DNA from: Shigella phage ESh24
Sequence record: ON528734
DNA length: 64,000 nucleotides
Direction: 5' to 3' (one strand)
The position numbers and the translations under genes were made by a program. Shown here one piece after another: positions 3,686 through 58,884 of this stretch (position 1 is the first letter of the stretch; every line of letters starts with the position of its first letter). The notes under the pieces are model-generated. The model saw only the letters and a list, made by a program, of their open reading frames with translations, did no database searches and was not told the DNA's origin.

Positions 3686-4204
3686 ATGGCTCACTTTAAT
3701 GAATGTTCACAACTGATCGAAGGCGCTGATAAAGCTCAAAATGAATATTGGGATATTCTCGGTGATGAAAAAGACCCGCTGCAGGTTATGCTTGACATGC
3801 AGAAATCTTTGCAGGTTCGTTTAGCTAAAGATAAACCTGAATATAACCGTCATCCTGATGATTTGGCTACTGCAGGTGAAGTTGTTGATTGGCTGCGTAA
3901 TCAGAAAGATTATATTGACGATGAATTCCGTGAACTTCTGACTTCTCTTGGTGGTATGAGTAATGGTGAAAAAGACGCATCTGCTGTATGGAAACCTTGG
4001 AAGTCGCAGCATGGTGAACGTCGTGAAACTCTGATTACTGATTTGTCTCCACAGGACCAGTTAGAAATCAAATTCGAAATGATTGATATTCTCCATTTTG
4101 TTCTGAACATGTTTCAAGGTCTTGGTCTTACAGCAGAAGAAATCTTTAAACTTTATTATCTGAAAAATGCTGAAAATTTCGCTCGTCAAGACCGAGGTTA
4201 TTAA
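3686..4204 (+). CDS. 56: dCTPase/dUTPase gp56 (MazG-like)
   Basis: ATG at 3686 with RBS AAAGGA; 171 aa; sequence recalled as T4 gp56. Confidence 0.85.
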   Translation: MAHFNECSQLIEGADKAQNEYWDILGDEKDPLQVMLDMQKSLQVRLAKDKPEYNRHPDDLATAGEVVDWLRNQKDYIDDEFRELLTSLGGMSNGEKDASAVWKPWKSQHGERRETLITDLSPQDQLEIKFEMIDILHFVLNMFQGLGLTAEEIFKLYYLKNAENFARQDRGY

Positions 4205-4234
4205 CAGCTCGTCTTAAAAGCCGCGAGAATTTAT

Positions 4235-4242
4235 TATAAATA
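4235..4242 (+). promoter_or_regulatory. late promoter TATAAATA upstream of soc
   Basis: exact TATAAATA about 30 nt upstream of soc ATG. Confidence 0.6.
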
Positions 4243-13059: not shown

Positions 13060-13231
13060 AGTTTAAAATTTTTTCATAAAACTATATACATCAGTAGTTG
13101 ATTATGGTACTATATCAATATCAACTACTGATATAGAAAACAACTTGGAGAATAAAATGGATAATTCGTTAAAGGTGCTGATACTCTTCTGAAACGCATC
13201 GCTCCAATGTTCAATTAATGAGGAAATTGTA

Positions 13232-13868: not shown

Positions 13869-14045
13869 ATGCCAATGTATGATTATAAATGCCAATCCGA
13901 AGATTGCGGGCATGAATATGAAAAAATTAAAAAGATTTCTGAACGAGAAAATGATGTTTGCCCTAAATGTCATCGTTTGTCTACTCGTCGGCCTTCTGCT
14001 CCTAAGCATGTGAATGGTGGTTTTTACGACTTACTTAAAGGGTGA
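13869..14045 (+). CDS. zinc-ribbon small protein
   Basis: 58 aa with CxxC...CxxC (CQSEDC ... CPKC); below track cutoff. Confidence 0.4.
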   Translation: MPMYDYKCQSEDCGHEYEKIKKISERENDVCPKCHRLSTRRPSAPKHVNGGFYDLLKG

Positions 14046-14047
14046 TT

Positions 14048-14419
14048 ATGTTTAAAATCGGTAAGAAATATCGTATTCGCGAAGGCGAAGAAAAGAAATA
14101 TCTAATGTCTGCTATTTATAGGAATGGTTCTATTAATGCTGTAATATCTACAAGCGAATTTATCGTTGAAGATATGAAAGGTAATAATGTTACAATGATT
14201 AGTACAGCATCTGGAAATGATGGAAAAATTCTTCACAGTTTTCAGAGTAATGTTCTAATTTATGATGAAGAATTTGACTTCTTCGAAGAAGTTCCTGAAG
14301 ATTTTGATTTTGAATGCACCATCACTATGAAATCTGGTGACCCTCTTTCTTTTACAGTTAAAGATGAAAGAAGCCGTTTAAGAATTATTAGTCTCCTTCA
14401 AGCCATTAAATTTGAGTGA
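14048..14419 (+). CDS. hypothetical protein
   Basis: 124 aa from ATG 14048. Confidence 0.5.
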   Translation: MFKIGKKYRIREGEEKKYLMSAIYRNGSINAVISTSEFIVEDMKGNNVTMISTASGNDGKILHSFQSNVLIYDEEFDFFEEVPEDFDFECTITMKSGDPLSFTVKDERSRLRIISLLQAIKFE

Positions 14420-14423
14420 AATT

Positions 14424-14726: not shown

Positions 14727-14753
14727 ATTCCCGAAACCAAACGAGGATAAGTG

Positions 14754-16571
14754 ATGATTAAGAATGAAATTAAAATTCTGAGCGATATTGAACATATCAA
14801 AAAGCGTAGTGGCATGTATATTGGCTCTTCTGCTAATGAAATGCATGAGCGCTTTCTGTTTGGTAAATGGGAAAGTGTTCAGTATGTACCTGGTCTTGTT
14901 AAGCTTATTGATGAAATTATCGATAACTCAGTAGATGAAGGTATTCGTACTAAGTTTAAATTCGCGAATAAAATTAATGTTACCATTAAAAATAATCAGG
15001 TAACAGTTGAAGATAACGGTCGCGGTATTCCACAAGCGATGGTTAAAACACCTACCGGTGAAGAAATTCCTGGTCCAGTTGCTGCTTGGACTATTCCAAA
15101 AGCAGGTGGTAACTTTGGCGATGATAAAGAACGTGTCACCGGTGGTATGAATGGTGTTGGTTCTAGTTTGACAAACATTTTTTCTGTGATGTTTGTCGGT
15201 GAAACTGGCGATGGTCAAAATAATATTGTAGTTCGTTGTTCAAATGGCATGGAAAATAAATCATGGGAAGATATTCCTGGAAAATGGAAAGGAACTCGTG
15301 TTACTTTCATTCCAGATTTTATGTCATTTGAAACTAATGAGCTGTCCCAAGTTTATCTTGACATTACACTGGATCGTCTCCAGACGCTTGCTGTAGTTTA
15401 TCCTGATATTCAATTTACCTTTAATGGTAAAAAGGTTCAGGGCAATTTTAAGAAATATGCACGACAGTATGATGAGCATGCTATTGTTCAAGAACAAGAA
15501 AATTGTTCTATTGCGGTTGGTCGTTCACCGGATGGATTTCGTCAATTAACTTACGTGAATAACATTCATACTAAGAATGGTGGCCATCACATTGATTGTG
15601 TTATGGATGATATTTGTGAAGACCTTATTCCACAAATCAAACGTAAGTTCAAAATTGATGTCACTAAAGCACGTGTCAAAGAATGTTTGACTATCGTTAT
15701 GTTTGTCCGTGATATGAAAAACATGCGATTTGACTCTCAAACTAAAGAACGACTTACTTCTCCATTTGGCGAAATTCGTAGTCATATTCAACTTGATGCT
15801 AAAAAGATTTCACGTGCTATTTTAAATAATGAAGCAATTTTAATGCCAATTATTGAAGCTGCTTTGGCTCGTAAATTGGCGGCAGAAAAAGCAGCAGAAA
15901 CTAAAGCAGCTAAAAAGGCTTCTAAAGCTAAAGTTCATAAACATATTAAAGCGAATCTTTGTGGTAAAGATGCTGACACTACATTGTTCTTAACCGAGGG
16001 TGATTCAGCTATCGGATATCTTATTGATGTTCGCGATAAAGAACTTCATGGCGGTTATCCATTGCGTGGTAAAGTTCTTAATAGCTGGGGTATGTCATAT
16101 GCCGATATGCTTAAAAACAAAGAACTATTTGATATTTGCGCAATCACTGGATTGGTTCTTGGTGAAAAAGCTGAAAACTTGAATTATCATAATATTGCTA
16201 TTATGACCGATGCTGACCATGATGGTCTAGGAAGCATTTATCCTTCTCTTCTTGGATTTTTTAGTAATTGGCCAGAACTGTTTGAGCAAGGAAGAATTCG
16301 CTTTGTCAAAACTCCTGTAATCATCGCTCAGGTCGGTAAAAAACAAGAATGGTTTTATACAGTCGCTGAATATGAGAGTGCCAAAGATGCTCTACCTAAA
16401 CATAGCATCCGTTATATTAAGGGACTTGGCTCTTTGGAAAAATCTGAATATCGTGAGATGATTCAGAACCCAGTATATGATGTTGTTAAACTTCCTGAGA
16501 ACTGGAAAGAGCTTTTTGAAATGCTCATGGGAGATAATGCTGACCTTCGTAAAGAATGGATGAGCCAGTAG
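14754..16571 (+). CDS. 39: DNA topoisomerase II large subunit gp39, fused form (ATPase plus Toprim region; no separate gene 60)
   Basis: 605 aa continuous ORF with GyrB-like ATPase motifs and Toprim region; T4 has split 39+60. Confidence 0.9.
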   Translation: MIKNEIKILSDIEHIKKRSGMYIGSSANEMHERFLFGKWESVQYVPGLVKLIDEIIDNSVDEGIRTKFKFANKINVTIKNNQVTVEDNGRGIPQAMVKTPTGEEIPGPVAAWTIPKAGGNFGDDKERVTGGMNGVGSSLTNIFSVMFVGETGDGQNNIVVRCSNGMENKSWEDIPGKWKGTRVTFIPDFMSFETNELSQVYLDITLDRLQTLAVVYPDIQFTFNGKKVQGNFKKYARQYDEHAIVQEQENCSIAVGRSPDGFRQLTYVNNIHTKNGGHHIDCVMDDICEDLIPQIKRKFKIDVTKARVKECLTIVMFVRDMKNMRFDSQTKERLTSPFGEIRSHIQLDAKKISRAILNNEAILMPIIEAALARKLAAEKAAETKAAKKASKAKVHKHIKANLCGKDADTTLFLTEGDSAIGYLIDVRDKELHGGYPLRGKVLNSWGMSYADMLKNKELFDICAITGLVLGEKAENLNYHNIAIMTDADHDGLGSIYPSLLGFFSNWPELFEQGRIRFVKTPVIIAQVGKKQEWFYTVAEYESAKDALPKHSIRYIKGLGSLEKSEYREMIQNPVYDVVKLPENWKELFEMLMGDNADLRKEWMSQ

Positions 16572-19029: not shown

Positions 19030-19968
19030 ATGTACAATATTAAATGCCTGACCAAAAACGAACAAGCTGAAATTGTTAAATTGTATTCAAGCGGTAATTA
19101 CACCCAACAGGAATTGGCTGATTGGCAAGGTGTATCGGTTGATACAATCCGTCGTGTTTTGAAAAATGCTGAAGAAGTTAAACGCTCTAAAGTTACTATT
19201 AGCGGTGATATTACAGTTAAAGTTAATAGTGATGTAGTTATTGCTCCAGTTGCTAAATCTGACATTATTTGGAATGCATCTAAAAAATTCATTTCGATTA
19301 CTGTTGACGGTGTAACTTATAACGCAACTCCTAATACTCATTCAAACTTCCAGGAAATTCTCAATCTGCTTGTAGCGGATAAGCTGGAAGAAGCGGCACA
19401 AAAAATTAATGTTCGTCGCGCTGTTGAAAAATATATTTCCGGCGATGTTCGAATTGAAGGTGGAAGCTTGTTCTATCAAAATATTGAATTGCGGTCTGGT
19501 TTGGTTGATCGTATTCTTGACTCGATGGAAAAAGGCGAAAACTTTGAATTTTATTTTCCGTTCTTGGAAAATCTGCTGGAAAACCCAAGCCAAAAAGCGG
19601 TATCTCGACTCTTTGATTTCTTGGTAGCAAACGATATTGAAATTACAGAAGATGGTTACTTCTATGCTTGGAAAGTAGTTCGCAGCAATTACTTTGACTG
19701 TCACTCAAATACCTTTGATAACAGTCCGGGTAAAGTAGTTAAAATGCCGCGTACTCGCGTGAATGACGATGATACACAAACTTGTTCTCGTGGTCTGCAT
19801 GTGTGTTCTAAATCTTATATTCGTCACTTCGGTGGTTCAACCAGCCGAGTTGTAAAAGTTAAAGTTCATCCTCGCGATGTAGTATCAATTCCGATTGATT
19901 ACAACGATGCTAAAATGCGTACCTGCCAATACGAAGTAGTTGAAGACGTTACTGAACAATTTAAATAA
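19030..19968 (+). CDS. rIIB: rIIB protein
   Basis: 312 aa, T4 rIIB length. Confidence 0.9.
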   Translation: MYNIKCLTKNEQAEIVKLYSSGNYTQQELADWQGVSVDTIRRVLKNAEEVKRSKVTISGDITVKVNSDVVIAPVAKSDIIWNASKKFISITVDGVTYNATPNTHSNFQEILNLLVADKLEEAAQKINVRRAVEKYISGDVRIEGGSLFYQNIELRSGLVDRILDSMEKGENFEFYFPFLENLLENPSQKAVSRLFDFLVANDIEITEDGYFYAWKVVRSNYFDCHSNTFDNSPGKVVKMPRTRVNDDDTQTCSRGLHVCSKSYIRHFGGSTSRVVKVKVHPRDVVSIPIDYNDAKMRTCQYEVVEDVTEQFK

Positions 19969-20255: not shown

Positions 20256-20813
20256 ATGCAGAAAACAAATCCGGGTTTGCAGAGACTATTTCAGATTCCG
20301 ACATTTACCCTATCGAACAGTGACTTGACTAGTGAAATGAAGGTCAAAATTGCTGATACAGCAAGATACTCTTTAAAACAAAATCCAAATCAGGATAAGG
20401 CAGAAGTTATCGAAAGATGCCGTATCGCTGTGTACGCAGAGTTTTTTGTGGCAGATTGGCTAAGCGGATATGTCAATAAAGGCCAAGAAGATGTCGATGA
20501 TCCGTACACATATGCATGGGATGTTTTAGCACATCCAAAATACTGTGGGCTCCGTGTAGAAGTTAAGACACATCAAACTGACTCGCGTTGGATTTCGGTA
20601 ACAACGGGATGCAGCGGAGAGTATCCATATGGTTCTGGAATAAATCTAGGGCCCATTCTAAATCATCAAGTCGCTGACTGTATAATTATATTCAACACTA
20701 AAGAAATTCATCCAGGTGTCATCCAGTACACTCCGAAGTTCATCGGTGATAGAGAAGACCTTCGTAAGGTTGTAAGAAAAAGCAACTACAACGGATGGTA
20801 TCTTTCCATTTAA
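20256..20813 (+). CDS. denB: endonuclease IV DenB
   Basis: 185 aa, matches T4 denB length and position next to rIIB. Confidence 0.8.
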   Translation: MQKTNPGLQRLFQIPTFTLSNSDLTSEMKVKIADTARYSLKQNPNQDKAEVIERCRIAVYAEFFVADWLSGYVNKGQEDVDDPYTYAWDVLAHPKYCGLRVEVKTHQTDSRWISVTTGCSGEYPYGSGINLGPILNHQVADCIIIFNTKEIHPGVIQYTPKFIGDREDLRKVVRKSNYNGWYLSI

Positions 20814-20829
20814 AAAATTTCACAAAACG

Positions 20830-20859
20830 GTTTACATACCACAAGGACCGTGGTACTAT
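20830..20859 (+). promoter_or_regulatory. T4-type early promoter with conserved leader cassette
   Basis: GTTTAC 20830-20835, TGGTACTAT 20851-20859, then TATCAACTACGGAGGA RBS. Confidence 0.55.
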
Positions 20860-20887
20860 ACAATTATCAACTACGGAGGAGCGGAAA

Positions 20888-21151
20888 ATGAAATTTAAAT
20901 TTTATTACGCTAAACATAAAATAACTGATGAATTCGTGTCAGTTGAATATTCTAGCGATGATGAAGGTATGATTTATACTCGCTTAGGATTATCGCATTG
21001 GGAGTCTGATACGCCTTATTTTTCAACTCCCGAAGAAATTACACGCTTAGTTAATGGTCATATGAATGACCACTGGGATGTAATTCTTTCAGATAGTCTT
21101 AAAGCGGCTATTAATAGTAATGAAATGAAAATTGCTGAGATTGAACTATGA
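20888..21151 (+). CDS. hypothetical protein (ndd.x position)
   Basis: 87 aa from ATG 20888 after GGAGGAG. Confidence 0.4.
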   Translation: MKFKFYYAKHKITDEFVSVEYSSDDEGMIYTRLGLSHWESDTPYFSTPEEITRLVNGHMNDHWDVILSDSLKAAINSNEMKIAEIEL

Positions 21152-21393
21152 GTTCATTATGGTGGTGTTTTGTTTGGTTAATTAGTATTCCAGTAATTTG
21201 TTTAACATTTACTTTTGTGATGAGGTTATTATGAAAATTATGAATTCTGTACTTATTGCTTGCGCGTGGTGGGTTGCACAGGTTTCAGCGGTAGTAGTTG
21301 GTATTCACATTTATTACGAATATTTTTAAAAAGCTGTTTACAAGACTGTTCTTCCGTGGTACTATTACCCTATCAACTACGGAGGAACAGAAA

Positions 21394-21507
21394 ATGAAAA
21401 AGATTATTAAAGCTATATGGAATGTAGTTATAATACTAATAGTTTTGAGTATATTCCCAATCGTTTTAATGATTGATGTATTAAACGCTTACTTTGGATT
21501 TATGTGA
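21394..21507 (+). CDS. hypothetical small membrane protein
   Basis: 37-aa hydrophobic ORF after same promoter/RBS cassette. Confidence 0.3.
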   Translation: MKKIIKAIWNVVIILIVLSIFPIVLMIDVLNAYFGFM

Positions 21508-24424: not shown

Positions 24425-24429
24425 TTTTA

Positions 24430-24456
24430 GGGAGAGCCTCGGCTCTCCCTTTTTTA
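24430..24456 (+). terminator. intrinsic terminator
   Basis: GGGAGAGCCTCGGCTCTCCC + TTTTTTATTTT. Confidence 0.7.
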
Positions 24457-24480
24457 TTTTAAAATTTTTTTCACAAAACG

Positions 24481-24510
24481 GTTTACAACCAAAGCATACT
24501 GTGGTACTAT
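24481..24510 (+). promoter_or_regulatory. T4-type early promoter upstream of motA
   Basis: GTTTAC 24481-24486, TGGTACTAT 24502-24510. Confidence 0.55.
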
Positions 24511-24551
24511 ACAACTATCAACTACTGATACAGAATTACGGAGATTAGAAA

Positions 24552-25187
24552 ATGTCTAAAGTAACTTACATCATCAAAGCTTCTAACGATGTTCTGAATG
24601 AAAAAACTGCTGCGATTTTAATTACTATTGCTAAGAAAGATTTCATTACAGCCGCAGAAGTTCGTGAGGTGCATCCAGATTTAGGTAACGCAGTAGTTAA
24701 TAGTAATATTGGGGTGTTGATTAAAAAAGGCCTGGTGGAGAAATCTGGTGATGGATTAATCATTACTGGTGAAGCTCAGGATATTATTTCAAATGCAGCA
24801 ACTTTATATGCACAAGAAAATGCTCCGGAACTGCTGAAAAAACGAGCAACTCGTAAAGCTCGCGAGATTACTTCCGATATGGAAGAAGATAAAGACTTCA
24901 TGTTAAAACTTTTAGATGAAAATGGATTTATTCTTAAAAAGGTTGAAACTTACCGCAGTAACTATCTTGCTATTTTAGAAAAACGCACTCACGGAATTCG
25001 CAATTTTGAAATTAACAATAATGGAAATATGCGAATTTTTGGATATAAAATGATGGAACATCATATTCAGAAATTTACTGATATCGGAATGTCATGTAAA
25101 ATCGCTAAAAACGGTAATGTGTATCTTGACATTAAACGCTCGGCAGAAAACATTGAAGCAGTAATCACCGTAGCATCTGAACTGTGA
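24552..25187 (+). CDS. motA: middle-transcription activator MotA
   Basis: 211 aa, T4 MotA length, next to asiA/52. Confidence 0.85.
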   Translation: MSKVTYIIKASNDVLNEKTAAILITIAKKDFITAAEVREVHPDLGNAVVNSNIGVLIKKGLVEKSGDGLIITGEAQDIISNAATLYAQENAPELLKKRATRKAREITSDMEEDKDFMLKLLDENGFILKKVETYRSNYLAILEKRTHGIRNFEINNNGNMRIFGYKMMEHHIQKFTDIGMSCKIAKNGNVYLDIKRSAENIEAVITVASEL

Positions 25188-27955: not shown

Positions 27956-27963
27956 TATTTATA
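27956..27963 (-). promoter_or_regulatory. late promoter TATAAATA for t
   Basis: plus-strand TATTTATA, about 20 nt upstream of t start. Confidence 0.55.
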
Positions 27964-27982
27964 TGCTGAGAGGTATTACCAT

Positions 27983-28762
27983 TTAAATCCAGGAACCATA
28001 GATCGTGCCTGTTGCACCCCATGATGGCGAAGAACCGAATACCGCTCTACCTGGAGCACCACCGCCGGATCTAGATAAGTGATTACCCCATCCATCTCCA
28101 CCCCGACCTCCAGCATCACCGCCATTGCCACCGCCAAATTGACTTGTATTACCACCGCCGCCTGGACCGTCATAACTAGCATTGCCACCAGGCCAATTAA
28201 CACCACCGCCACCGAGACCAAATGGTCTGCCACCGCCACCACCAGCTGTAGCATACGCGTCCCAGCTATTCTTTAACGACACTGCACCACCGCCACCGCC
28301 GCCTGATGCAATAACGCCATAGTTCCAAATGCGGAGTCGTCCACCAATATCATTTTGGATTACGTCGCCACCATTAGTGCCTGGGCTTCCATTTACGCTA
28401 CCATTACCACCTCGGCCCCACATATGAACACCACCATGAATATTCAAAGTAACATATTCGTTAGGAGTATCACCATACATGAAGAATAAAGGAACGTCTT
28501 TAGAATATGATACTAAGTTGCCTGTGATATTAAACACTATAGGAGCGCCACCGGCTTCAAAACAACGGTCACGGAACCATTGACCATTAAAGTTATGGTC
28601 TGCTCCAAGAGTGTGAATAATTTCTCTTGAACGTCCAGCGAATTGTGACATCCAAGATGGGTTCCCTAGACGTAATTCTCTAGAAGCTGCTGACATCCAA
28701 CGTTGACCTGTTTCAGCCACTGCTGATGTTCCAATCCAACCAGGTATTCCTACTACTGCCAT
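27983..28762 (-). CDS. 38: gp38 receptor-recognising adhesin (T2-type, glycine-rich motifs)
   Basis: 259 aa; conserved N-terminal region then poly-Gly blocks ([30 protein letters not shown]) separating variable segments. Confidence 0.8.
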
Positions 28763-28773
28763 AAAAACCTCCA

Positions 28774-28789
28774 GGGCCCGAAGGCCCTT
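28774..28789 (-). terminator. hairpin between genes 37 and 38 (attenuator-like), immediately before the gp38 RBS
   Basis: AGGGCCCGAAGGCCCT in the 30-bp gap between gp37 stop and gp38 start. Confidence 0.45.
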
Positions 28790-28792
28790 TTA

Positions 28793-31700
28793 TTATTTTA
28801 TCAATGATTTAATTAATGCTTTCAACTCAGCAATTTCAGATTTCAATTCCTTGATTTCGTCAGTATGCTCGTTGATAGTGGCAGTATTTAAACCAATAAT
28901 ACCGTTATAGTTCAAACGAAGCAGTCCGGTCTCTTTATCTTCAGAAACAAGTTCAGGAAATACTTTTTGAACTTCCTGGGCGATTAAACCGGCGGACGGT
29001 TTAACTTCATCAGTAACGGGGTTTTTAAGCAGATAAGTATAACCACCTAAGAGTTTAGATTTCTCTTGTGCGTTATCGATAAGCTTAATTTCCGATTTAC
29101 AACGAATATCAGAACGAATATAAACGTCGTTAACGTCAATGTTATCGCGAACATACATACCGGCGTTACAGTGGAAGTTAACGTTACTAAAGGTCTGGGC
29201 CAGCCCAGCTCGAATACTGAATACACCTTGACCATTAGCATACATGTTGTAGATGCCATCGCTTTCCCAGACCAATCCAGTGTCATTGTCACCAATTGCT
29301 ATGCATGGCGTAGACCAAGCGGGTTCAATACCTACACCAATACCCGCCCAACCGGAAACAATTCTTCCTGGGGAAGTAAACTGCCCGTTGGCCAAAAATT
29401 GATAAACCGCTGCAGGATGTCCTTGTTCTGGTGTATTTTCAGTTGAACGAACAATTATACAACCGGTACCCCAACCTGCGGTACCTGAACGTAAAGTACC
29501 TAGCTCTACACTTGTGTTATATCCATACCCCGTTGAAGAACTTCGTCCTTTAATAATAGGATAGTACACATTCCCGTTTAATTCGCCATGTTCTACAAAT
29601 ATAGGAGCTTCAAGGTTATATTGTAGGCTAATCATACCTGAGTTTTGAGAGACCCATCTTGTAGCATTAACGTACATACGGTTTTCACTCATTTGAACCA
29701 AGCCAAAAGCGCTTGGGCTAAATGTAATGGCGCCAGCGTCATTCAAATCAATACCGGTTGTTGTTTTATAGTTGTAAAAAGATACTGTGTCAGATTGGCC
29801 ACCTTTACCAACAAACCAACTATTAGCACCACCAACTTCTGAACGAATATGCGAACTATTAATTGCATTAGGTGCTCTAATTACTAAAGCATCATCGGCC
29901 GCAGCAATAGTTAATTTTCCGGTCATCGTATCGCCTTCTTTGGCAATACGAGTAGCTATTGCATCGCGAATATTTGTAATGTCTCCTGCTGAAGTAAACG
30001 TTTTCCAAATATCCGAGAAAATATTACCATTACGAGCAATAGCAGCTTCGCCACCGCCGACCAGAACGTTATCGGGAAAATTAACGGTACCATCGGCGTT
30101 AAATCTTGATGTATGGCCTTGTGAACCATCTTCTTTGATATGGTGTAAAACAAATGTACCCGAATTAATTTCAGTACCTAAAGACCAAACAGCTTTACTG
30201 TTTAAAAACTTCTGTTTAACAATAGGATAATATTTACTTACTGCGTCATCATCGATTTCCTGGAAAATAGGAGCTGCTTGAACATATTGAATATCATAAC
30301 CACCAGCGCCCGCGCCGTGACCAGTAAATTTAATATAACCGTTTGCTGCGAACGTATTGTAACTTGATTGTAAATCTGGAATAGTAACTTTACCAGTATC
30401 TAAAGCCATACTAAACGGGCGAAGTGGACCGATATCGCCGTGTTTACCTTCACCGTAAGCAGTTGGAATAATATGAAGACTACCTTCTGAACGTCTAAAA
30501 ATGGCTCCATAATCTGCGTTCCAAATACGAAGCGCATTCACTGCTCCAGATGAAATTTCACCTGTTGTGTGAACTCCTCTATCTCCAGCAGTAACACCAG
30601 ATGATTCAAATGAACCATTAACGTTCATTTCTACTTCGCCAGTAGTAAGTCTTTGAATATAGCTCATCCAGCTAGTTGCATCAGAAATTTCCATAATGTT
30701 TTTACGGATACCTCCGCTTGGATCAACAAACGTATTACCCCAAACTTTAATATCCATATTATCAACCGAGCTGTATCCTGTTGTGTTGCCTCTAAACATT
30801 AGTGTAGAAGAATTATTTCTACCATCTATATTAACAGAACCGCCAATAACGTCAATATTACCAGGAGTAACTAACAAACCGCCGTGAGTATTAATGTTTG
30901 TAGTACCCTTACCGCGGAAATAATGATGATAATTACCACCTTGATAATATCCTAAAAGAGTTTGACCGTCGCCGTATGCGTTATTATCGTGGTATGTTAC
31001 TACAGTAGCAAGAGCATAGTTTTCTGTCGGTGGCGTTGTCATAAGAATCCCATCCGGAGAATAACCCATAACCATTTTTCTAAGGCTTTGTGTTTCCGCA
31101 GGACCGTAAATGAAAGTTCTTGTTCCGTTGTTTACTGTATGAAAATATCCGTCCTGGTGCCATTTTAGCCCGGTATCATTATCACCAAGAGCAATCGAAG
31201 CAGTCCCTAATTCAGAATATCCTTTAGAGCCACCCGGAAGACCTATAGAAATAGAATGGCCTGCTTTCAATCCACCGGCCCAGTTAAACGACCAAAGATA
31301 AGTGTCTAAGCCATCTCCGGAATACCAGGTTATTCCGTCATTAACATTAACTTCGTGGAAAATACCTGCTCCTACAGCATTTCGCATAACACGTAGGTGG
31401 TTAATAGCCGTTTCGCCTTCTGCCATTGGAGTGTTATTTGATAATGAATAGATATCATAATCGCCTGTCTTCTTCCCGTTTGTAATAACTTTGTCGGTCA
31501 GAATTTGTGGAGACGAAATAGATTTCCATGCTGATACTTCAGGTGAAGTAAATAGGCCACTGCCTGAAAATGCATAAGTGCTTTCGCTACCAGCGGCGTA
31601 GTCTTGAACCCTGATATTAAGTACTTGTGTAGTTAAACCATCATTAGCCGGGGCATAAATGATTCCACGTTCGCGACTATTGCCATCGAAAAAACGAACA

Positions 31701-32059
31701 TGCGCTGTACCTGAACTTTTTGTAATAAGTTCTCCGCCTTCAGTCATAATCTGCCCAGCAGCAATAATATCACGAGTTACTCGAGCAATACCAGTTAAAT
31801 TAAAATTACCAGTCTGGGTGAATGTACCGTTTAAAGTATAATCACCAGTTTGGTTATAATTGCCTTTATGAATAACATTCCCGTCAATACTACCGCCTTT
31901 AGCAAAACCTAAATCAATAATATTTCCCTGGTCATCTTTAGTAAAAAGTACACGGTCTTTTAAGTTTATAGCCAATTCACCTTCGGCTAATACTGAAGCA
32001 GCTGGACGTTGACCTGCCGTTTTGCTTCTTTTAAATTGTATTTGTTTTAAAGTAGCCAT
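28793..32059 (-). CDS. 37: long tail fibre distal subunit gp37 with C-terminal intramolecular-chaperone-like domain
   Basis: 1088 aa; conserved N-terminus MATLKQIQFKRSKTAGQRPAAS; C-terminal SDIRCK...coiled-coil tail. Confidence 0.9.
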   Translation of the reverse strand: MATLKQIQFKRSKTAGQRPAASVLAEGELAINLKDRVLFTKDDQGNIIDLGFAKGGSIDGNVIHKGNYNQTGDYTLNGTFTQTGNFNLTGIARVTRDIIAAGQIMTEGGELITKSSGTAHVRFFDGNSRERGIIYAPANDGLTTQVLNIRVQDYAAGSESTYAFSGSGLFTSPEVSAWKSISSPQILTDKVITNGKKTGDYDIYSLSNNTPMAEGETAINHLRVMRNAVGAGIFHEVNVNDGITWYSGDGLDTYLWSFNWAGGLKAGHSISIGLPGGSKGYSELGTASIALGDNDTGLKWHQDGYFHTVNNGTRTFIYGPAETQSLRKMVMGYSPDGILMTTPPTENYALATVVTYHDNNAYGDGQTLLGYYQGGNYHHYFRGKGTTNINTHGGLLVTPGNIDVIGGSVNIDGRNNSSTLMFRGNTTGYSSVDNMDIKVWGNTFVDPSGGIRKNIMEISDATSWMSYIQRLTTGEVEMNVNGSFESSGVTAGDRGVHTTGEISSGAVNALRIWNADYGAIFRRSEGSLHIIPTAYGEGKHGDIGPLRPFSMALDTGKVTIPDLQSSYNTFAANGYIKFTGHGAGAGGYDIQYVQAAPIFQEIDDDAVSKYYPIVKQKFLNSKAVWSLGTEINSGTFVLHHIKEDGSQGHTSRFNADGTVNFPDNVLVGGGEAAIARNGNIFSDIWKTFTSAGDITNIRDAIATRIAKEGDTMTGKLTIAAADDALVIRAPNAINSSHIRSEVGGANSWFVGKGGQSDTVSFYNYKTTTGIDLNDAGAITFSPSAFGLVQMSENRMYVNATRWVSQNSGMISLQYNLEAPIFVEHGELNGNVYYPIIKGRSSSTGYGYNTSVELGTLRSGTAGWGTGCIIVRSTENTPEQGHPAAVYQFLANGQFTSPGRIVSGWAGIGVGIEPAWSTPCIAIGDNDTGLVWESDGIYNMYANGQGVFSIRAGLAQTFSNVNFHCNAGMYVRDNIDVNDVYIRSDIRCKSEIKLIDNAQEKSKLLGGYTYLLKNPVTDEVKPSAGLIAQEVQKVFPELVSEDKETGLLRLNYNGIIGLNTATINEHTDEIKELKSEIAELKALIKSLIK

Positions 32060-33910: not shown

Positions 33911-36900
33911 TTATTCAACCCATTCAAATTTAACAGTTTTATTCACTGGGTCAGGAATAATGCGAACATTACCAATTCGTAAGAAATCACGAATAGTAAG
34001 ATTCCCCATTGTAGCATTATCAGATGGTAAAGCACCGATATCAGACGGTTGAGGAGGGTTACCTCCATCAAATACCTGAACAAAACTTGACCAAGAATTT
34101 TTGGTTTTCTGCCATGTGCGGGTCCAACGAGTGGTACGCGCTTCTGGAGTTGTTGGATAAGTAATCCAATCTTGATAAAGCGAATCAAGTGTGTTACCAA
34201 ACTGAGTCAGTGTACCAGGAGATTTAACTTCTTCGCCACGTTCTAAATATGGAAGACCAGTCACTTCATTAGTTTTTTCAACCATTTTAAAATAACCTGG
34301 GAACTGGTTATAAGTAGCTGAATCGTTAATATCAATTGACCAGAATCCTACAGTATCAGATGTTGGCGCACGTGTATATAAGTCAGATGTTTTAGTACCT
34401 TGAGAACGAATTCTCGAGTTAACAGTTAAACCACCAGAATTTATAGTAGCACCTTTGGCGATGATTAAGCTTTCACCAATCGTTACTTGACCAGATGCAT
34501 TATTAATAGCTAATGGGCGTAATCCATTGAATCCACCAGTCTGATCACCCGATGCAGTAAGCATAAAATTCGTTACTGATCCATCATTGCGAACAATGAA
34601 ACCATAATTTCCGTTAATAGCACGGAAAGCATTTGCGCTTCGAGAAATAATTTCACCAGTTGCAGTGACTGAATTACCAAATGTTGCTACGCCATTTGCA
34701 TTCAATGTTCCTGAAGCATTAACATTTATCGGTGTTACTGTACCGTTGATATTAAATGTTATATTTCCAGCTTTATTGCGCTGAGAATAAAAATGACTAG
34801 ATGTTTCATCACTAACTTCAAATACGGTAGAACGTGTTGTATCTAATTCCCCACTAAATTGATTTCCCCACACTCTAACAGTCATCGTTTGGGCTGGGTT
34901 TGTTCCAGTTTGAGGTCCTTTCTCAAAAATCAATCGAGTTGCTGTTCCAGTATTAGAAATCGTTAGTACACTATTTGCTGTAACTGAACCACCAAACGTA
35001 GCAGTACTAGATGATACAAGAGGGGCACTCAGATTCGTTTGTTGGGTTAAGGTTAGTGAACCATTAACCGTCTGCGCAATGTCCCTACGAATGAACTGAG
35101 ATGAATCTAGACCATCCAATAAATTACTATCAGCAGCTTTTGCTTTTAACGGTAAATAATTTGCTAATACACGGTTTAATTCGTATGGTGATACTGCATA
35201 GCTATTTTTCTCATACAGTTCTAAATCTTGGGTAGAACCGACTGTATCATTACCGACAAATGTAATTGAACCAGATGAAGTTTTAACAAAGCCTCTTACT
35301 GTAGTAGTAGCTGCCCAGGTAGGTTCACTCTGTACAATCCATTTTAAATTTTTTGGAGATACAGCAGTATTTGCTGACGTTCCAGTCACAGTTTCAGACT
35401 GAGTTGCAACTTTAATAACACCTTCTTGTGCTTCAGTAGATTTAGTACCTAAAAGCTTTTTAGGAGTTATTAAAACATTATCTAATTTTCCAGCAGCAGC
35501 TTCAACTTGTGTAGCCACACGAAGTGTACCACGTTGTGTCTCATTTGCTTCAAGAATATTAAGGGTATAATGGTCCCAGAGAGTTCCTGATTCAACTAAT
35601 CCAGATAGAGCAACAACAGAAGTACGATCAGTACTATTAAATCTAGTTTTAATTTTTAATGGTGTAGAGATACGAGTATCGTCGACGCCTGCGTCGAATT
35701 CAACTTGTGTAGCAATTTCAGCTATACCACTTAAACTTTCAGTTGCTCTACGGTCATTTAAAGTTTTAGGAGTGACTGCACGAGTATAATCAGTTCCTGT
35801 ATTAACTTCAGATTGTGTAGCAATTTCAATTAATCCAATTCTTCCATCAGTTGATGTCTTTTTGTGTAACGTTTCTGGCGTTACAACAGCATTTGCCCAT
35901 CCTTCTTGACTCTGTCCAGCAATTACTTCACTTTCAACTGCTAAAATTACTGCACCTTGTTGCGTTGGAGTAGCTTTATATTGATCTAAAGCTTTAGGTG
36001 AAACAACTAAATTATTAGTGTTTTTATTATAAACGTTTGTACCATTTAATTCACGGCTAGAAGCTGGAGTAGCACCTGCAGTAGATACAAAAGTTACAAT
36101 ACCAGATAATGATTCAGAACCTTGACGAGCTTGAAGCTTTTTAGGAGTAATGATGGTTGTATCATCTGTTCCTGCGTTTGTTTCTTGCTGCGTAGCAATT
36201 TCAGCAACACCTCTGCGAGTTTCTGTAGCAGTTCTTTCATTCAGCTTTTTAGGAGTGATGATAATATCATCAGCAAAAGAGAATGTAGTATCCTGGTTAA
36301 CTTGAGCAGTAGTTGCTATTCTTGCGATACCTCTGCGAGTTTCAGTAGCAGTACGATTAGCTAACGTTTCTGGAGTAATTGCTAATTCTTTTTGTGGAGA
36401 ATTTTCTAAATCGACATTAGCTTGAGCTTGTGTAGCTAAAGCAATTACGCCTAATCTTGCTCTAGTAGAATCATTTAAAGAGTCTACTCTTTCTACAGTT
36501 GGAACGTTTTGCTGTACAACCCAGTATTTTCCATCAGAATCTTCAATATATGCAAGCTCTAAAACTGGAACATAATTAGTTTCACCGTTAAAAACTAATT
36601 CTTGAACTGTAACCCACTCAGCTCCAGGCGGATATTCTGAGCGTTTTGGGAATTGCAGCAATTGAACTGAGGAAGCAATTTTATCTTCACCAGCAGCTTT
36701 GATTTTAACTGTTTGTCCTTTTCTCATGTAATTCATGGAAATTTTAACAGTATCACCAACAGAAATATCAGTCGGAAGCTGAAGCTCAATTGTTTGAGTT
36801 GCTCCGTTATTCGCACCAAACACCATGACTTCTTCATTTGGACGAATATTAGAATTAGTTGTTATAATGCGTAAACGTGCTTTACTATCCCCGTCAAACA

Positions 36901-40046: not shown

Positions 40047-40145
40047 TTGCTTATTATAAATAGATTATAATTATCTCACTGACCAGCTATGAGGTCATAC
40101 ATCGTCATAGCACCAACTGTTAATTAAATTAAAAAGGAAATAAAA
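40047..40145 (+). promoter_or_regulatory. gene 32 translational operator (pseudoknot plus unstructured A/U-rich tract)
   Basis: TGACC AGCTATGA GGTCA ... TCATAGC pseudoknot-forming repeats, then AATTAAATTAAAAAGGAAATAAAA before ATG. Confidence 0.65.
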
Positions 40146-41076: not shown

Positions 41077-41101
41077 GGGGACCCTAGAGGTCCCCTTTTT
41101 A
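41077..41101 (+). terminator. intrinsic terminator after gene 32
   Basis: GGGGACCCTAGAGGTCCCC + TTTTT. Confidence 0.7.
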
Positions 41102-41125
41102 TTTCAAAAATTTTTTCACAAAACG

Positions 41126-41155
41126 GTTTACATCCTTGTCCTTCCATGGTACTAT
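41126..41155 (+). promoter_or_regulatory. T4-type early promoter
   Basis: GTTTAC 41126-41131, TGGTACTAT 41147-41155. Confidence 0.55.
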
Positions 41156-41198
41156 ACAACTATCGGCAATACTGCTGATGATTAAAGAGGAAAATAAT

Positions 41199-41429
41199 AT
41201 GGCTAAAGTTGATATTGACATTGTTGATTTTGAATATATTGAAGAGATTATTCGTAATCGTTATCCTGAACTTAGTATCACAAGTATTCACGATGATCCC
41301 AATTATTGCAATTTTTCTATTGTCATTGAAGGTCCTCTTGAAGACCTCACCCGCTTTATGGCTAATGAATATTGTGATGGTATGGATTCTGAAGACGCAG
41401 AATTTTACATGGGATTGATTGAACAATAA
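41199..41429 (+). CDS. hypothetical acidic protein
   Basis: 76 aa from ATG 41199 with RBS AAAGAGGAAAA. Confidence 0.4.
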
Positions 41430-41473: not shown

Positions 41474-41839
41474 ATGTATATCGGTAAAAAGTATGAACTT
41501 GTTCCAAGACTTATTGATACATTTATTAATTATCGCCCACGTTCTAATTCAGCAATAGTTAAAATTATTCAAGAAAATGGCGGATGGTTTGAAGTTAAAG
41601 AAGCTTTCTTTGTTGATGGATTTAGAGTAATAAAACACATTGAATGCGCAAATGGAAAGCATTTTTACTTTAACGTTTGTGAAGACGAATTTCATTGTTT
41701 TCGTGAGTATAAAGAACTGACTTCTGAAGAAGATGAAGTCAAAGACAAGGTTTCTGGCGTAACAAAAATTCACTGCATTGTAGACGAAAACAATGTAGAT
41801 GAAATCATTGAACTTTTGCGAAAAACTTTCAAAAAGTAG
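41474..41839 (+). CDS. hypothetical protein
   Basis: 121-aa ORF. Confidence 0.5.
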   Translation: MYIGKKYELVPRLIDTFINYRPRSNSAIVKIIQENGGWFEVKEAFFVDGFRVIKHIECANGKHFYFNVCEDEFHCFREYKELTSEEDEVKDKVSGVTKIHCIVDENNVDEIIELLRKTFKK

Positions 41840-41893
41840 TTTACAACAGGGTAGTAGTGTGATACTATTACCCTATCAACTAAGGAGAATAAA

Positions 41894-42136
41894 ATGAGAT
41901 TACAACGCCAGAGCATCAAAGATTCGGAAGTTAGAGGTAAATGGTATTTTAATATCATCGGTAAAGATTCTGAACTCGTTGAAAAAGCTGAACATCTTTT
42001 ACGTGATATGGGATGGGAAGATGAATGTGATGGATGCCCTCTTTATGAGGATGGAGAAAGCGCAGGATTCTGGATTTACCATTCTGACGTCGAGCAGTTT
42101 AAAGCTGATTGGAAAATTGTGAAAAAGTCTGTTTAA
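41894..42136 (+). CDS. hypothetical protein
   Basis: 80-aa ORF. Confidence 0.5.
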   Translation: MRLQRQSIKDSEVRGKWYFNIIGKDSELVEKAEHLLRDMGWEDECDGCPLYEDGESAGFWIYHSDVEQFKADWKIVKKSV

Positions 42137-45828: not shown

Positions 45829-48083
45829 TTAATGTTATCAAAAGTAGTGGTGTTTCTCAGAGCTTTGACCCGCAAAAAATTATTAAAGTTTTATCTTGGG
45901 CAGCTGAAGGAACATCAGTCGATCCTTATGAATTATATGAAAATATTAAATCATATCTCCGTGATGGAATGACAACTGATGATATTCAGACTATTGTCAT
46001 TAAGGCCGCTGCGAATTCTATTTCAGTTGAAGAGCCTGATTATCAATACGTAGCCGCGCGCTGTTTAATGTTTGCTCTTCGTAAGCATGTTTATGGGCAG
46101 TATGAACCACGTTCATTTATTGACCATATTTCTTACTGTGTAAATGAAGGTAAATATGACCCTGAATTATTGTCAAAATATTCAGCAGAAGAAATTACAT
46201 TTTTAGAATCAAAAATTAAGCACGAGCGGGATATGGAATTTACTTATTCCGGGGCGATGCAATTAAAAGAAAAATATCTCGTTAAAGATAAAACTACTGG
46301 TCAAATTTATGAAACTCCACAGTTTGCATTTATGACTATTGGAATGGCACTGCATCAAGATGAACCTGTTGATAGATTAAAACATGTTATTCGTTTTTAT
46401 GAAGCAGTATCTACTCGACAGATTTCATTGCCAACTCCTATTATGGCTGGTTGTCGTACTCCGACTCGACAGTTTAGTTCATGCGTTGTTATTGAGGCAG
46501 GTGATTCATTGAAGTCTATCAATAAGGCTTCCGCTTCAATTGTTGAATATATCTCTAAACGCGCTGGAATTGGTATTAACGTTGGTATGATTCGTGCCGA
46601 AGGTTCTAAGATTGGCATGGGTGAAGTACGCCATACCGGTGTTATTCCTTTTTGGAAACATTTTCAGACTGCTGTTAAATCATGTTCACAGGGTGGAATT
46701 CGTGGCGGCGCTGCTACTGCTTATTATCCTATTTGGCATTTGGAAGTTGAAAATCTTCTCGTTTTGAAAAATAACAAAGGTGTAGAAGAAAACCGCATTC
46801 GTCATATGGATTATGGTGTTCAGCTGAATGATTTGATGATGGAACGTTTTGGAAAGAACGATTACATTACTTTGTTCAGTCCGCATGAAATGGGTGGCGA
46901 GCTTTATTATTCTTATTTTAAAGATCAAGACCGTTTCCGTGAATTATACGAAGCTGCAGAAAAAGACCCTAATATTCGTAAAAAGCGTATTAAAGCCCGT
47001 GAACTGTTTGAATTGCTTATGACTGAACGCTCAGGAACAGCAAGGATTTATGTGCAGTTCATTGATAATACGAATAACTATACTCCGTTTATTCGTGAAA
47101 AGGCACCTATTCGCCAGAGTAACTTGTGCTGTGAAATTGCTATTCCAACAAATGATGTGAATAGTCCTGATGCTGAAATTGGCTTGTGTACTCTCTCTGC
47201 ATTCGTACTAGATAATTTTGACTGGCAAGACCAAGATAAAATTAATGAATTAGCAGAAGTTCAAGTTCGTGCTCTTGATAATCTTTTGGATTACCAAGGA
47301 TATCCAGTTCCTGAAGCAGAAAAAGCTAAAAAGCGTCGTAACCTCGGTGTAGGTGTTACTAACTATGCAGCTTGGCTGGCAAGTAACTTTGCTTCTTATG
47401 AAGATGCTAACGATTTAACACATGAACTATTTGAGAGATTACAGTATGGACTCATTAAAGCATCCATTAAGCTCGCCAAAGAAAAAGGACCTTGCGAATA
47501 TTATTCAGACACTCGTTGGTCTCGAGGCGAATTACCTATCGACTGGTACAATAAAAAGATTGACCAAATCGCAGCTCCAAAATACGTTTGTGACTGGTCG
47601 TCGCTGCGGGAAGACCTTAAGCTCTTTGGCATCCGTAATAGCACATTATCAGCACTTATGCCATGTGAGTCATCTTCCCAAGTTTCTAACAGTACAAACG
47701 GTATCGAGCCTCCACGTGGACCAGTCTCTGTTAAAGAATCAAAAGAGGGCTCCTTTAATCAAGTCGTGCCCAATATTGAACATAACATAGACCTATATGA
47801 TTATACATGGAAATTAGCTAAGAAAGGTAATAAACCTTATCTTACGCAGGTAGCTATTATGCTGAAATGGGTATGTCAATCAGCTTCGGCGAATACATAT
47901 TATGACCCACAGATTTTTCCAAAAGGAAAGGTTCCAATGTCAATAATGATTGATGACCTTTTGTATTTTTGGTATTTTGGCGGAAAAAATTTCTATTATC
48001 ATAATACCCGTGATGGTTCTGGTACTGATGATTATGAAATAGAAACTCCTAAAGCTGAAGATTGTTCATCCTGTAAATTATGA
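45819..48083 (+). CDS. nrdA: aerobic ribonucleotide reductase large subunit NrdA
   Basis: 754 aa with ATP-cone N-terminus and class I RNR catalytic motifs. Confidence 0.95.
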   Translation: MQLINVIKSSGVSQSFDPQKIIKVLSWAAEGTSVDPYELYENIKSYLRDGMTTDDIQTIVIKAAANSISVEEPDYQYVAARCLMFALRKHVYGQYEPRSFIDHISYCVNEGKYDPELLSKYSAEEITFLESKIKHERDMEFTYSGAMQLKEKYLVKDKTTGQIYETPQFAFMTIGMALHQDEPVDRLKHVIRFYEAVSTRQISLPTPIMAGCRTPTRQFSSCVVIEAGDSLKSINKASASIVEYISKRAGIGINVGMIRAEGSKIGMGEVRHTGVIPFWKHFQTAVKSCSQGGIRGGAATAYYPIWHLEVENLLVLKNNKGVEENRIRHMDYGVQLNDLMMERFGKNDYITLFSPHEMGGELYYSYFKDQDRFRELYEAAEKDPNIRKKRIKARELFELLMTERSGTARIYVQFIDNTNNYTPFIREKAPIRQSNLCCEIAIPTNDVNSPDAEIGLCTLSAFVLDNFDWQDQDKINELAEVQVRALDNLLDYQGYPVPEAEKAKKRRNLGVGVTNYAAWLASNFASYEDANDLTHELFERLQYGLIKASIKLAKEKGPCEYYSDTRWSRGELPIDWYNKKIDQIAAPKYVCDWSSLREDLKLFGIRNSTLSALMPCESSSQVSNSTNGIEPPRGPVSVKESKEGSFNQVVPNIEHNIDLYDYTWKLAKKGNKPYLTQVAIMLKWVCQSASANTYYDPQIFPKGKVPMSIMIDDLLYFWYFGGKNFYYHNTRDGSGTDDYEIETPKAEDCSSCKL

Positions 48084-48134
48084 TATAATTTGACTCATGG
48101 ACGAGTCACTATCTATTAACTAAGTGGAAAATTT

Positions 48135-53448: not shown

Positions 53449-54669
<1,221 letters not shown>

Positions 54670-58513: not shown

Positions 58514-58546
58514 GTTTACAGTATGGTTCCTTTGTGATAGTATTAT
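58514..58546 (+). promoter_or_regulatory. T4-type early promoter
   Basis: GTTTAC 58514-58519, TAGTATTAT -10 region. Confidence 0.45.
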
Positions 58547-58596
58547 CTTACACAAACAAAAGAAAAGGGCTTCGGCCCCTTACTGAGGAAAATATT

Positions 58597-58884
58597 ATGT
58601 TTATGACTACTTATTTTGATACCCGTAAAAATTTCTGTGAAGTGGTTTTCTCAAAGGCGCCTAAAGACCTTCCTGCTCATTTGCAACCTACCAGTGAATC
58701 GATTAAAAATTACGTTGATGTGGTTTGTCCTTTAGAATTCCGTACAGTAAATGGGCGTGATACTTTAGCTATCACTAAACTCAATCGTGAAATTGACATT
58801 GACCCTTCAATTGCGAGTGAAATTAACATTTCTGATATTGGCGGTGGTAATGTTAAATCACACGGCTTTCAGATGAGGTTCTAA
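58597..58884 (+). CDS. hypothetical protein
   Basis: 95 aa from ATG 58597, RBS TGAGGAAAA, preceded by GGGCTTCGGCCC hairpin. Confidence 0.45.
   Translation: MFMTTYFDTRKNFCEVVFSKAPKDLPAHLQPTSESIKNYVDVVCPLEFRTVNGRDTLAITKLNREIDIDPSIASEINISDIGGGNVKSHGFQMRF

Follow-up and report, generated by a model that had tools for sequence, protein, structure and literature searches.

Promoter-early stem-loop (PeSL) cassettes have been described in T4-like phages (Arbiol et al. 2010, PMC2839356; Comeau et al. 2014, PMC4122927). The promoter consensus given for T4 and PST in the PeSL literature is TTTACW-N17-TAYWAT. Mini-circles of phages RB49 and phi1 had their crossover between the -10 and Shine-Dalgarno (SD) boxes, and terminator-like activity was measured for one RB49 PeSL stem-loop (Arbiol et al. 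2010, PMC2839356). The two papers call the stem-loop a terminator or attenuator and do not mention translation (PMC2839356, PMC4122927). Fig. 6A of Comeau et al. 2014 (PMC4122927) depicts the denB-ndd locus, with ORF268 and ORF269 of PST set against T4.

Related elements are known under other names. The early promoters of T4 (Pe) are exceptionally strong 'uber' sigma-70 promoters with UP, -35, TGn and -10 elements (Hinton 2010, PMC2988021). The T4 genes e, soc, 49 and I-TevI have SD-sequestering hairpins that are combined with an internal promoter (Uzan & Miller 2010, PMC3014915). RegB cuts the T4 motA mRNA in its SD sequence; the RegB motif is GGAG, and motA and regB are the precedents.

Botstein-Campbell 'linker' sequences, morons and integron cassettes are modular exchange systems; to our knowledge, morons are not thought to move via regulatory sequences. 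The small early genes of T4-like phages often have host-takeover or anti-defence functions.

Here we analyze two promoter-leader blocks, cassettes 1 and 2, which precede successive small genes in the genome of Shigella phage ESh24 (sequence record ON528734). The analysis covers a stretch of 64,000 nucleotides, referred to as the window, and all coordinates are positions in it. Both blocks are very probably PeSLs, that is, units of early promoter, leader, ribosome-binding site and ATG, with a predicted SD-masking hairpin in cassette 2, which at the same time act as linkers in recombination. The cassette concept and the denB-ndd locus are already published, under the headings of T4 early promoters and PeSL. 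What the window adds is incremental, namely a further architecture of the locus, conversion between the cassettes of ndd.4 and nrdC.8, and possible masking of the SD by the promoter spacer.

Results

Genome setting of the two cassettes

The ORF content of the window and its matches are those of a T4-like phage of the genus Tequatrovirus. A 1.9-kb query spanning both blocks matched 499 phage records (best 97%), nearly all of them Tequatroviruses of Escherichia, Shigella or Yersinia. The gene order on the + strand is rIIB (19030-19968), denB.1, denB (20256-20813, with the stop codon ending at 20813), cassette 1, ORF-B (20888-21151), ndd.6 (21148-21234), ndd.5 (21231-21329), cassette 2 and ndd.4 (21394-21507), followed by further genes up to ndd and 52. 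Both blocks lie in intergenic gaps, cassette 1 between denB and ORF-B and cassette 2 between ndd.5 and ndd.4.

ORF-B encodes 87 aa and is a homologue of PST ORF268 (PHROG 2390) without known function. It is missing in T4 and T2, and phages of the fPS-90 type carry a deeply divergent allele. The genes between the cassettes, ndd.6 and ndd.5, encode tiny predicted membrane proteins, and ndd.4, behind cassette 2, encodes a predicted membrane protein of 37 aa. The stretch from denB to ndd is a hyperplastic region in which these small genes (ORF-B, ndd.4, ndd.5, ndd.6) have no assigned function. Pfam and PHROGs searches with them, and with the gene ORF-A of related phages, returned only families of unknown function or generic 'outer membrane protein' families.

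Promoter and leader anatomy

Cassettes 1 and 2 have a common layout, in which an AT-rich stretch is followed by an element of about 65 nt (GTTTAC to ATG). The element is composed of a GTTTACA -35 box, a 17-bp spacer ending in TGG and a TACTAT -10 box, and 3' of these of five variable bases, TATCAACTAC, GGAGG, 8 nt and ATGAAA. A promoter scan found TTTACA-17-TACTAT at 20831-20859 and at 21337-21365, with a TG preceding the -10 box in both cases.

The UP-like AT-rich region of cassette 1 (AAAAATTTCACAAAACG, 20814-20829) lies directly 3' of the denB stop codon. It is followed by the core promoter at 20830-20859 (-35 GTTTACA 20830-20836, TGn 20851-20853, -10 TACTAT 20854-20859), in which the 17-bp spacer can form a 6-bp hairpin, TACCAC/GTGGTA (20837-20842/20850-20855). 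The start region and leader extend over 20860-20890 (predicted +1 at about 20866, TATCAACTAC, GGAGG 20875-20879, ATG 20888-20890). The core promoter of cassette 2 occupies 21336-21365 (-35 GTTTACA 21336-21342, 17-bp spacer, TGn 21357-21359, -10 TACTAT 21360-21365), with a predicted +1 at about 21372, the SD GGAGG at 21381-21385 and the ATG at 21394. The RegB motif GGAG is contained in the SD of both cassettes. The UP-like AT-rich sequences at -40 to -60 are AAAAAATTTCACAAAAC in one cassette and ATATTTTTAAAAAGCT in the other, and TTTCACAAAACGGTTTAC, from this upstream region, is conserved in four of the six copies of the family treated below. In none of the cassette promoters is the -35 box, which is GTTTAC, replaced by a MotA box (TGCTT at -30).

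Annotations of homologous elements agree with this assignment. The orthologue of cassette 1 in phage fPS-90 is annotated as 'predicted early promoter', and in an old T4 record the corresponding bases of a paralogous cassette are labelled as -35 and -10 signals; promoter features are absent from the annotation of the denB-ndd region in the T4 GenBank record. By their sequence, cassettes 1 and 2 are T4-type sigma-70 early promoters, and a preliminary description of this DNA had rightly seen them as promoter-leader cassettes.

The same description had called the two blocks nearly identical. This is true of the leaders, in which 27 of 29 nt from TATCAAC to ATGAAA are the same, and CCGTGGTACTAT is also highly alike. 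It does not extend to the 15-nt promoter spacers, which are unrelated, so that identity over the whole 66-nt unit is 68%. The second block had been placed at 21348; its register with the first block begins at 21357, and the two cassettes are separated by 506 bp. The correct starts of the genes behind them are ATG 20888 and ATG 21394, each 8 nt 3' of a GGAGG. Two longer ORFs, 20795-21151 (giving ...RGTIQLSTTEERKMK) and 21298-21507 (giving ...RGTITLSTTEEQKMK), are six-frame artefacts, as had been suspected. A terminator scan found no + strand site between 20364 and 22025.

The cassette family in the window

The 31-nt pattern GTGGTACTAT-N5-TATCAACTACGGAGGA has two exact matches, 20850-20880 and 21356-21386, and one with 3 mismatches, 41859-41889, while 100 shuffles gave zero matches. 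The pattern GTTTAC-N15-TGGTAYTAT with up to 2 mismatches is matched 14 times in the window (0.45 expected). All 14 promoters lie on the + strand, which is the strand of rIIB, denB, ndd, 52 and motA.

A repeat search found a six-copy family of 66 nt at 13067, 20813, 21319, 24464, 41109 and 41822. Related versions reported before at 13105, 24502, 41147 and 41863 fall in the same places. The copy at 13084-13150, upstream of cef/goF by T4 collinearity, has an A-type leader with which its own spacer forms a 13-bp hairpin (z -6.0). The copy with GTTTAC at 24481 drives motA and has GGAG in its leader; immediately upstream is a terminator hairpin (24429-24450, then a T run; whole region 24429-24554). 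A terminator-like hairpin also lies immediately upstream of the copy with GTTTAC at 41126 (whole region 41077-41201), which precedes frd.3 by T4 collinearity. In the copy upstream of frd.1 (41839-41896) a 12-bp hairpin overlaps the -10 box (z -2.5), and T4 has 72 extra bp, a 22-codon micro-ORF, directly 3' of this leader.

Comparison with relatives at the denB-ndd locus

Alignment of T4 with the window showed that about 240 bp, corresponding to ORF-B, are missing in T4. The divergence begins directly 3' of TATCAACTAC, inside cassette 1, and the T4 remnant of ORF-B consists of its last eight codons, MKIAEIEL. Among the phage records the locus has at least four architectures. In ime09 and PST, cassette 1 has the A-type leader TGATACGGATTTGGAGAATAAAATG and is followed by ORF-A (68 aa) and then ORF-B. 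ORF-A is present and ORF-B absent in T2, and T4 lacks both. The window has ORF-B without ORF-A, behind a B-type leader that is nearly identical to the leader of cassette 2, where T4, T2 and ime09 carry the A-type leader. ORF-A is ORF269 of PST and ORF-B is its ORF268; the locus is therefore the example in Fig. 6A of Comeau et al. 2014.

The left boundaries of the four architectures all fall at TATCAAC(TAC). In T4, T2, ime09/PST, fPS-90 and the window alike, the differences begin on the left within cassette 1, 3' of its -10 box and 5' of its ATG. The right boundaries are 8-10-nt microhomologies resembling AAAATGAAA, and those of the T4 and T2 deletions are not inside a cassette. T4 groups with the window at eight informative sites spanning both flanks, and in the leader (20873-20887) the window stands alone at 11 informative sites in a row, which marks the leader as an exchangeable patch. 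Judged from this alignment, cassette 1 of the window is a chimera of the denB-side promoter and a B-type leader that resembles the one in cassette 2.

Phages of the fPS-90 type differ from the window in another way. Identity to the window is 96-98% in denB (fPS-90 and JEP6; the loci of PinkRuby and Pu-Krd-SF5 are truncated there) and 94-98% in the promoter of fPS-90 and JEP6 (89-98% across fPS-90, JEP6, PinkRuby and Pu-Krd-SF5). It is 84% in the leader, 66-67% in the body of ORF-B and 98-99% in ndd.6; the Mosigvirus orthologue of ORF-B has a higher identity of 73%. From this identity profile, phages of the fPS-90 type carry a swapped allele of ORF-B, and cassette 1 bounds the swap. Three kinds of event thus have cassette 1 as their left boundary, namely insertion or deletion of the 68-aa gene, loss of the 87-aa gene and replacement of the 87-aa gene by another allele.

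The preliminary description had proposed that the repeated units are potential substrates for recombination and gene shuffling, and had named an absence of rearrangements at the copies as what would speak against this. A search of related genomes found that rearrangements do map to the cassettes, in T4, T2, ime09/PST and fPS-90-type phages. The proposal gains further from three more T4-versus-window indels that touch cassettes and from the pair of paralogous cassettes with ectopic gene conversion, both described below. Its suggestion that the small genes are amplified was not borne out: ORF-B is single-copy per genome in 628 records and ORF-A in 129 records, and tandem amplification was rejected on these counts. 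Both genes were at the denB-ndd locus in all records examined, including those of Gaprivervirus and Gelderlandvirus. Neither was found at another genomic locus in these records, and movement of ORF-A or ORF-B between loci is not supported.

Breakpoints at other cassettes

When the whole window was chained collinearly to T4 by BLAST, 18 junctions resulted, of which four (J2, J8, J11 and J18) touch a cassette. J2 is a promoter-plus-gene module of 536 bp inserted at 2222, the right end of which is at the half-cassette TCACAAAACG. J8 is the presence or absence of ORF-B at cassette 1. At J11, near 41885, the 72-bp micro-ORF that T4 has between two CTAA(T)GGAGAA..AAAATG leaders is gone in the window, and at J18 the genes 30.7 and 30.8 are missing directly 3' of the leader of cassette 58514. 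The junctions J8, J11 and J18 are located 41-52 nt 3' of the start of the -35 box, i.e. between the -10 box and the ATG. Most of the remaining junctions are T4 homing-endonuclease genes or tail-fibre genes.

The number of junctions at cassettes exceeds the 0.53 expected under a genome-wide null (P=0.002). Under a crude non-coding null 2.2 are expected and the enrichment is not significant (P=0.17). Position alone is therefore no proof that the cassettes cause the events; they may just be sites where indels are tolerated. The latter result also suits the explanation that the cassettes are promoters only. Their likeness would then reflect selection for the strongest promoter, start, ribosome-binding site and second codon, and the junctions would be the survivors of ordinary microhomology or illegitimate events. 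This explanation can point to the right ends of the T4 and T2 deletions, which are at short AAAATGAAA microhomologies inside ORF-B and outside the cassettes, and to the general use of GGAGG, an 8-nt spacing and ATGAAA at strong translation starts. The deletion product expected from cassette 1 x cassette 2 is also consistent with it, since no contiguous match to this junction was found among the best hits from about 500 genomes.

Exchange between cassette copies

An IMG/VR search with ORF-B returned only five near-identical loci. These are too alike for an analysis of covariation, and cassettes fetched by pattern together with annotated phage records were used instead. In total, 77 distinct cassettes were gathered from the window, T4 and the fetched loci. 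The denB-side promoter spacer is paired in this set with at least five different leaders, and the combinations include an A-type leader fused directly to ORF-B. The same unit of spacer plus leader was also found before two unrelated genes.

Cassette 2 is most closely related to the cassette before nrdC.8, which is about 113 kb away in T4. The two have about 87% identity from GTTTAC to ATGAA, spacer included, and unrelated flanks. The ndd.4 and nrdC.8 cassettes of T4 differ by a 5-nt block (TACCC vs ACAAC, 4 differences), to which variants in the -10 box and the spacer are linked. ACAAC stands at both loci in a G8-like contig. In a ZN18-like contig both loci have TACCC, and there is no difference between its nrdC.8 cassette and the ndd.4 cassette of the ime09 type. 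All four combinations of locus and variant exist, and two genomes have been homogenised in opposite directions. This pattern of variants indicates ectopic gene conversion between the ndd.4 and nrdC.8 cassettes rather than repeated mutation.

These data bear on the promoter-only explanation, which we regard as unlikely. It does not anticipate that the 15-nt spacer, which RNA polymerase does not constrain, is common to two cassettes so far apart with unrelated flanks, or that the 5-nt block and the variants linked to it occur in every combination of locus and variant. Close relatives use two quite different leaders, A and B, at one site, and the leader is thus not tightly constrained. Furthermore, the crossovers in the experimental mini-circles of RB49 and phi1 fall between the -10 and SD boxes.

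A second alternative is that cassettes 1 and 2 arose by local tandem duplication and were kept, one per operon, without later exchange. The copies are indeed close to each other, their leaders are almost the same, and two cassettes that resemble each other also occupy the orthologous positions in a Mosigvirus outgroup. However, the spacers are unrelated, and the closest relative of cassette 2 is not adjacent but at nrdC.8. Cassette 1 of close relatives has the A-type leader, which makes the B-type leader a replaceable patch. Even the Mosigvirus pair is alike in a genus-specific way, which suggests continuing homogenisation and not one old duplication. We therefore consider duplication without exchange improbable. 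Grouping of the copies by genome rather than by locus is seen in part, namely in the ndd.4/nrdC.8 variant combinations.

The cassette 2 hairpin and predicted masking of the Shine-Dalgarno sequence

The spacer of cassette 2 (CTGTTCTTCCGTGGT, 5' arm 21346-21360) pairs over 15 bp with ACTACGGAGGAACAG (3' arm 21376-21390). The resulting hairpin (21346-21390) has a dG of -22.7 kcal/mol and a z of -4.74 in folding. Its 3' arm includes the SD GGAGG, and its loop (21361-21375) contains the -10 box and the predicted +1. Among 12 cassette 2-type variants 97.2% of the cells are paired, and unpaired cells are confined to the two outermost pairs. Five pairs vary, by wobble only (four G-C/G-U, one A-U/G-U); double compensatory changes were not found in the 12 variants, for which the shuffle control was uninformative. 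The pairing is conservation, not proof of selection on structure.

The calculated pairing probability of the ndd.4 SD is 1.00 in read-through RNA and 0.23 in RNA that begins at the predicted start of its own promoter. The corresponding values are 0.77 and 0.31 for the 12 cassette-driven genes of the window and 0.58 and 0.53 for 51 other gene starts, which served as controls. The SD-masking difference is 0.45 for cassette genes and 0.05 for controls (P=7e-5). For 40 representative cassettes the native combination of spacer and leader folds at -11.6 kcal/mol, compared with -8.0 kcal/mol for chimeras (P=8e-6). In cassette 1 the hairpin is only weak (6-7 bp, z -1.4), which would be expected of a cassette with a transplanted leader.

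It has little probability that TATCAACTAC and the hairpin are in the first place a terminator or attenuator, an RNase site or the target of a phage protein, with promoter reuse being secondary. In favor of this are the terminator-like activity of one RB49 PeSL stem-loop (Arbiol et al.), the true terminator hairpins just upstream of copies 24481 and 41126, and the role of GGAG as the motif of RegB. Against it, the cassette 2 hairpin lacks a U-tract at its 3' side and, with the -10 box and start site in its loop, cannot form in RNA from its own promoter. Moreover, an Rfam scan of 12000-43000 matched zero families, and TATCAACTAC is found in only about 5 of the 14 early promoters of the window.

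Discussion

The reading of both cassettes as PeSLs implies the following course of events. Judging from the sequence and the T4 literature, host sigma-70 RNA polymerase would fire from the cassettes in the first minutes of infection. The RNA is predicted to start about 7 nt 3' of TACTAT (at about 20866 and 21372), which would give a leader of about 22 nt. Cleavage by RegB at the GGAG of the leader would presumably end early expression. According to the computed folds, RNA that reads through from upstream would form the 15-bp hairpin and so hide the SD of ndd.4 from ribosomes, whereas transcripts begun at the promoter of cassette 2 itself have no 5' arm and would stay translatable.

The second role of the cassettes would be in recombination. 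The conserved segments GTTTAC, TGGTACTAT, TATCAACTAC and GGAG..AAAATGAAA recur before many small non-essential early genes, and the phage recombination system probably uses these short homology patches as 'linkers'. Comparison of the phages shows that genes behind a cassette are inserted, deleted or replaced at junctions that fall 3' of the -10 box and 5' of the ATG, and that the cassette copies convert one another.

The folding results allow a tentative extension, to which we attach somewhat less than even credence. The stem-loops may be mainly translational gates, with a spacer that is kept complementary to the SD, and the cassettes would then be portable expression insulators. If this is true, the logic of the late genes e, soc, 49 and I-TevI extends to T4 early promoters generally. 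It would also account for the co-variation of spacer and leader and for the loss of the hairpin with the transplanted leader of cassette 1.

The locus offers a small example of how a conserved T4-like backbone is kept while small early genes are traded. The cassettes would mark the points of exchange and supply expression signals to any gene that arrives behind them. For annotation, they give the correct start codons and help to avoid over-extended ORFs. They may also be used for predicting where accessory genes vary and for engineering phages by insertion behind a cassette.

Several known systems can be compared with the cassettes. Like Botstein-Campbell linkers, morons and integron cassettes, they are short conserved sequences at module boundaries which guide exchange and bring expression signals along. 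Unlike these, PeSLs have no dedicated recombinase or attachment site, and their homology patches are only about 10-30 nt long. The likeness to Pe promoters comprises the GTTTAC -35 box, TGn, the TAnnAT -10 box, the AT-rich upstream region, extra conserved positions and the location on the early-gene strand. The difference from Pe is without substance; the ACTAT-N5-TATCAACTAC subfamily is a subset of them.

The predicted behavior of cassette 2 resembles that of e, soc, 49 and I-TevI, in that a helix in read-through RNA would hide the SD and an internal promoter would provide a shorter, translatable RNA without the 5' arm. However, the promoters of these genes are late (gp55) and delay expression, whereas the internal promoter of cassette 2 is an early sigma-70 promoter. 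The predicted effect is therefore that translation is restricted to RNA from ndd.4's own promoter, and because of this early promoter cassette 2 would work like the e/soc/49/I-TevI class without being a member of it.

The cassettes of the window resemble published PeSLs in that an AT-rich region, -35 and -10 boxes, a stem-loop of variable position, an SD and a start codon are united in one element. They also fit the PeSL promoter consensus. As with PeSLs, the genes behind them are small and have no known function, and they lie in hyperplastic regions, where indels and replacements distinguish close relatives. The stem-loop of cassette 2 pairs the promoter spacer with the SD, whereas that of PeSLs is a G/C-rich terminator. 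To the published PeSLs the window adds an architecture in which ORF-B stands alone behind a B-type leader.

Cassettes at other gene boundaries

The interval between gene 61 and dam contains a 536-bp module (2222-2759) which is not present in T4 and which carries its own early promoter (GTTTAC at 2231). Its right boundary is a half-cassette, TCACAAAACG, that is, part of the unit of early promoter, leader, Shine-Dalgarno sequence and start codon. The only Pfam match of the 186-aa ORF in this module (2286-2846) was a weak one to DpnII, which remained under the cut-off (E=0.0045).

In T4, frd.1 is separated from its promoter cassette by an unannotated ORF of 22 codons, MFAPYIMAAVMLVCLYLLIKAC, which has its own Shine-Dalgarno sequence (L003, 146018-146090). 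This ORF is missing in the window (~41885); two leaders of almost identical sequence flank the junction. Genes 30.7 and 30.8 are also missing, at the early promoter at 58514 (58514-58600). In their absence a GC-rich hairpin of the GGGGCTTCGGCCCC type (58565-58582) is located ~22 nt past the -10 box of this promoter, and the Shine-Dalgarno sequence of the next gene comes after the hairpin. Transcription from this promoter would thus run directly into a stem resembling a terminator.

Other differences from T4

Two further insertions relative to T4, one of 371 bp with a 125-aa ORF (14042-14422) and one of 313 bp near pseT/cd.5 (53451-53765), were not associated with any recognised early-promoter cassette.

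The large subunit of topoisomerase II is encoded by a single ORF of 606 aa (14751-16571). The window is devoid of the 1.1-kb T4 segment which holds mobA, 60.1 and the gene 39/60 split (J7 in the collinear BLAST chain, 16171->16236); the translational bypass of gene 60, which is part of this segment, is likewise missing. The window has nothing that corresponds to segF, segG and mobE, homing-endonuclease genes of T4; 659, 623 and 700 bp are missing (4204-4235, 40047-40083 and 48079-48135). The nrdB intron region (49022-49499) contains 476 bp more than that of T4, in which I-TevIII is a deleted, defective copy.

In the tail-fibre region ~3.9 kb (27963-31893) gave no BLAST match to T4 between coordinates 160196 and 156708, an interval that covers gene 38 as well as the distal portion of gene 37. 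This suggests that the window has a different receptor-binding module from T4. Two direct-repeat families within 35403-36379, D3 (four copies of 68 nt) and D8 (three copies of 45 nt), fall in a long stretch collinear with the T4 tail-fibre genes; their copies are 65-73% identical and are probably internal protein repeats.

Cassettes and ORF-A in other genera

ORF-A, the 68-aa small gene of the denB-ndd locus in relatives of the window, also occurs in Gaprivervirus VR26 (L008, 1201-1407). Its protein is 94% identical to the Tequatrovirus version, across genera. For the homologues from Salmonella and Proteus phages of the Gelderlandvirus type the identity is ~63%. This suggests a recent horizontal transfer of the small gene into the same locus.

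Mosigvirus APCEc01 has cassettes at both orthologous intergenic positions (L006, 540-600 and 1060-1120). The two share a genus-specific pattern, GTTTACAAC..GTAGGAYTATGRTATAGTAGTCCTA, and in it a hairpin spans the -10 box. They are unlike those of Tequatrovirus, which suggests that the style of the cassette evolves in concert within a lineage.
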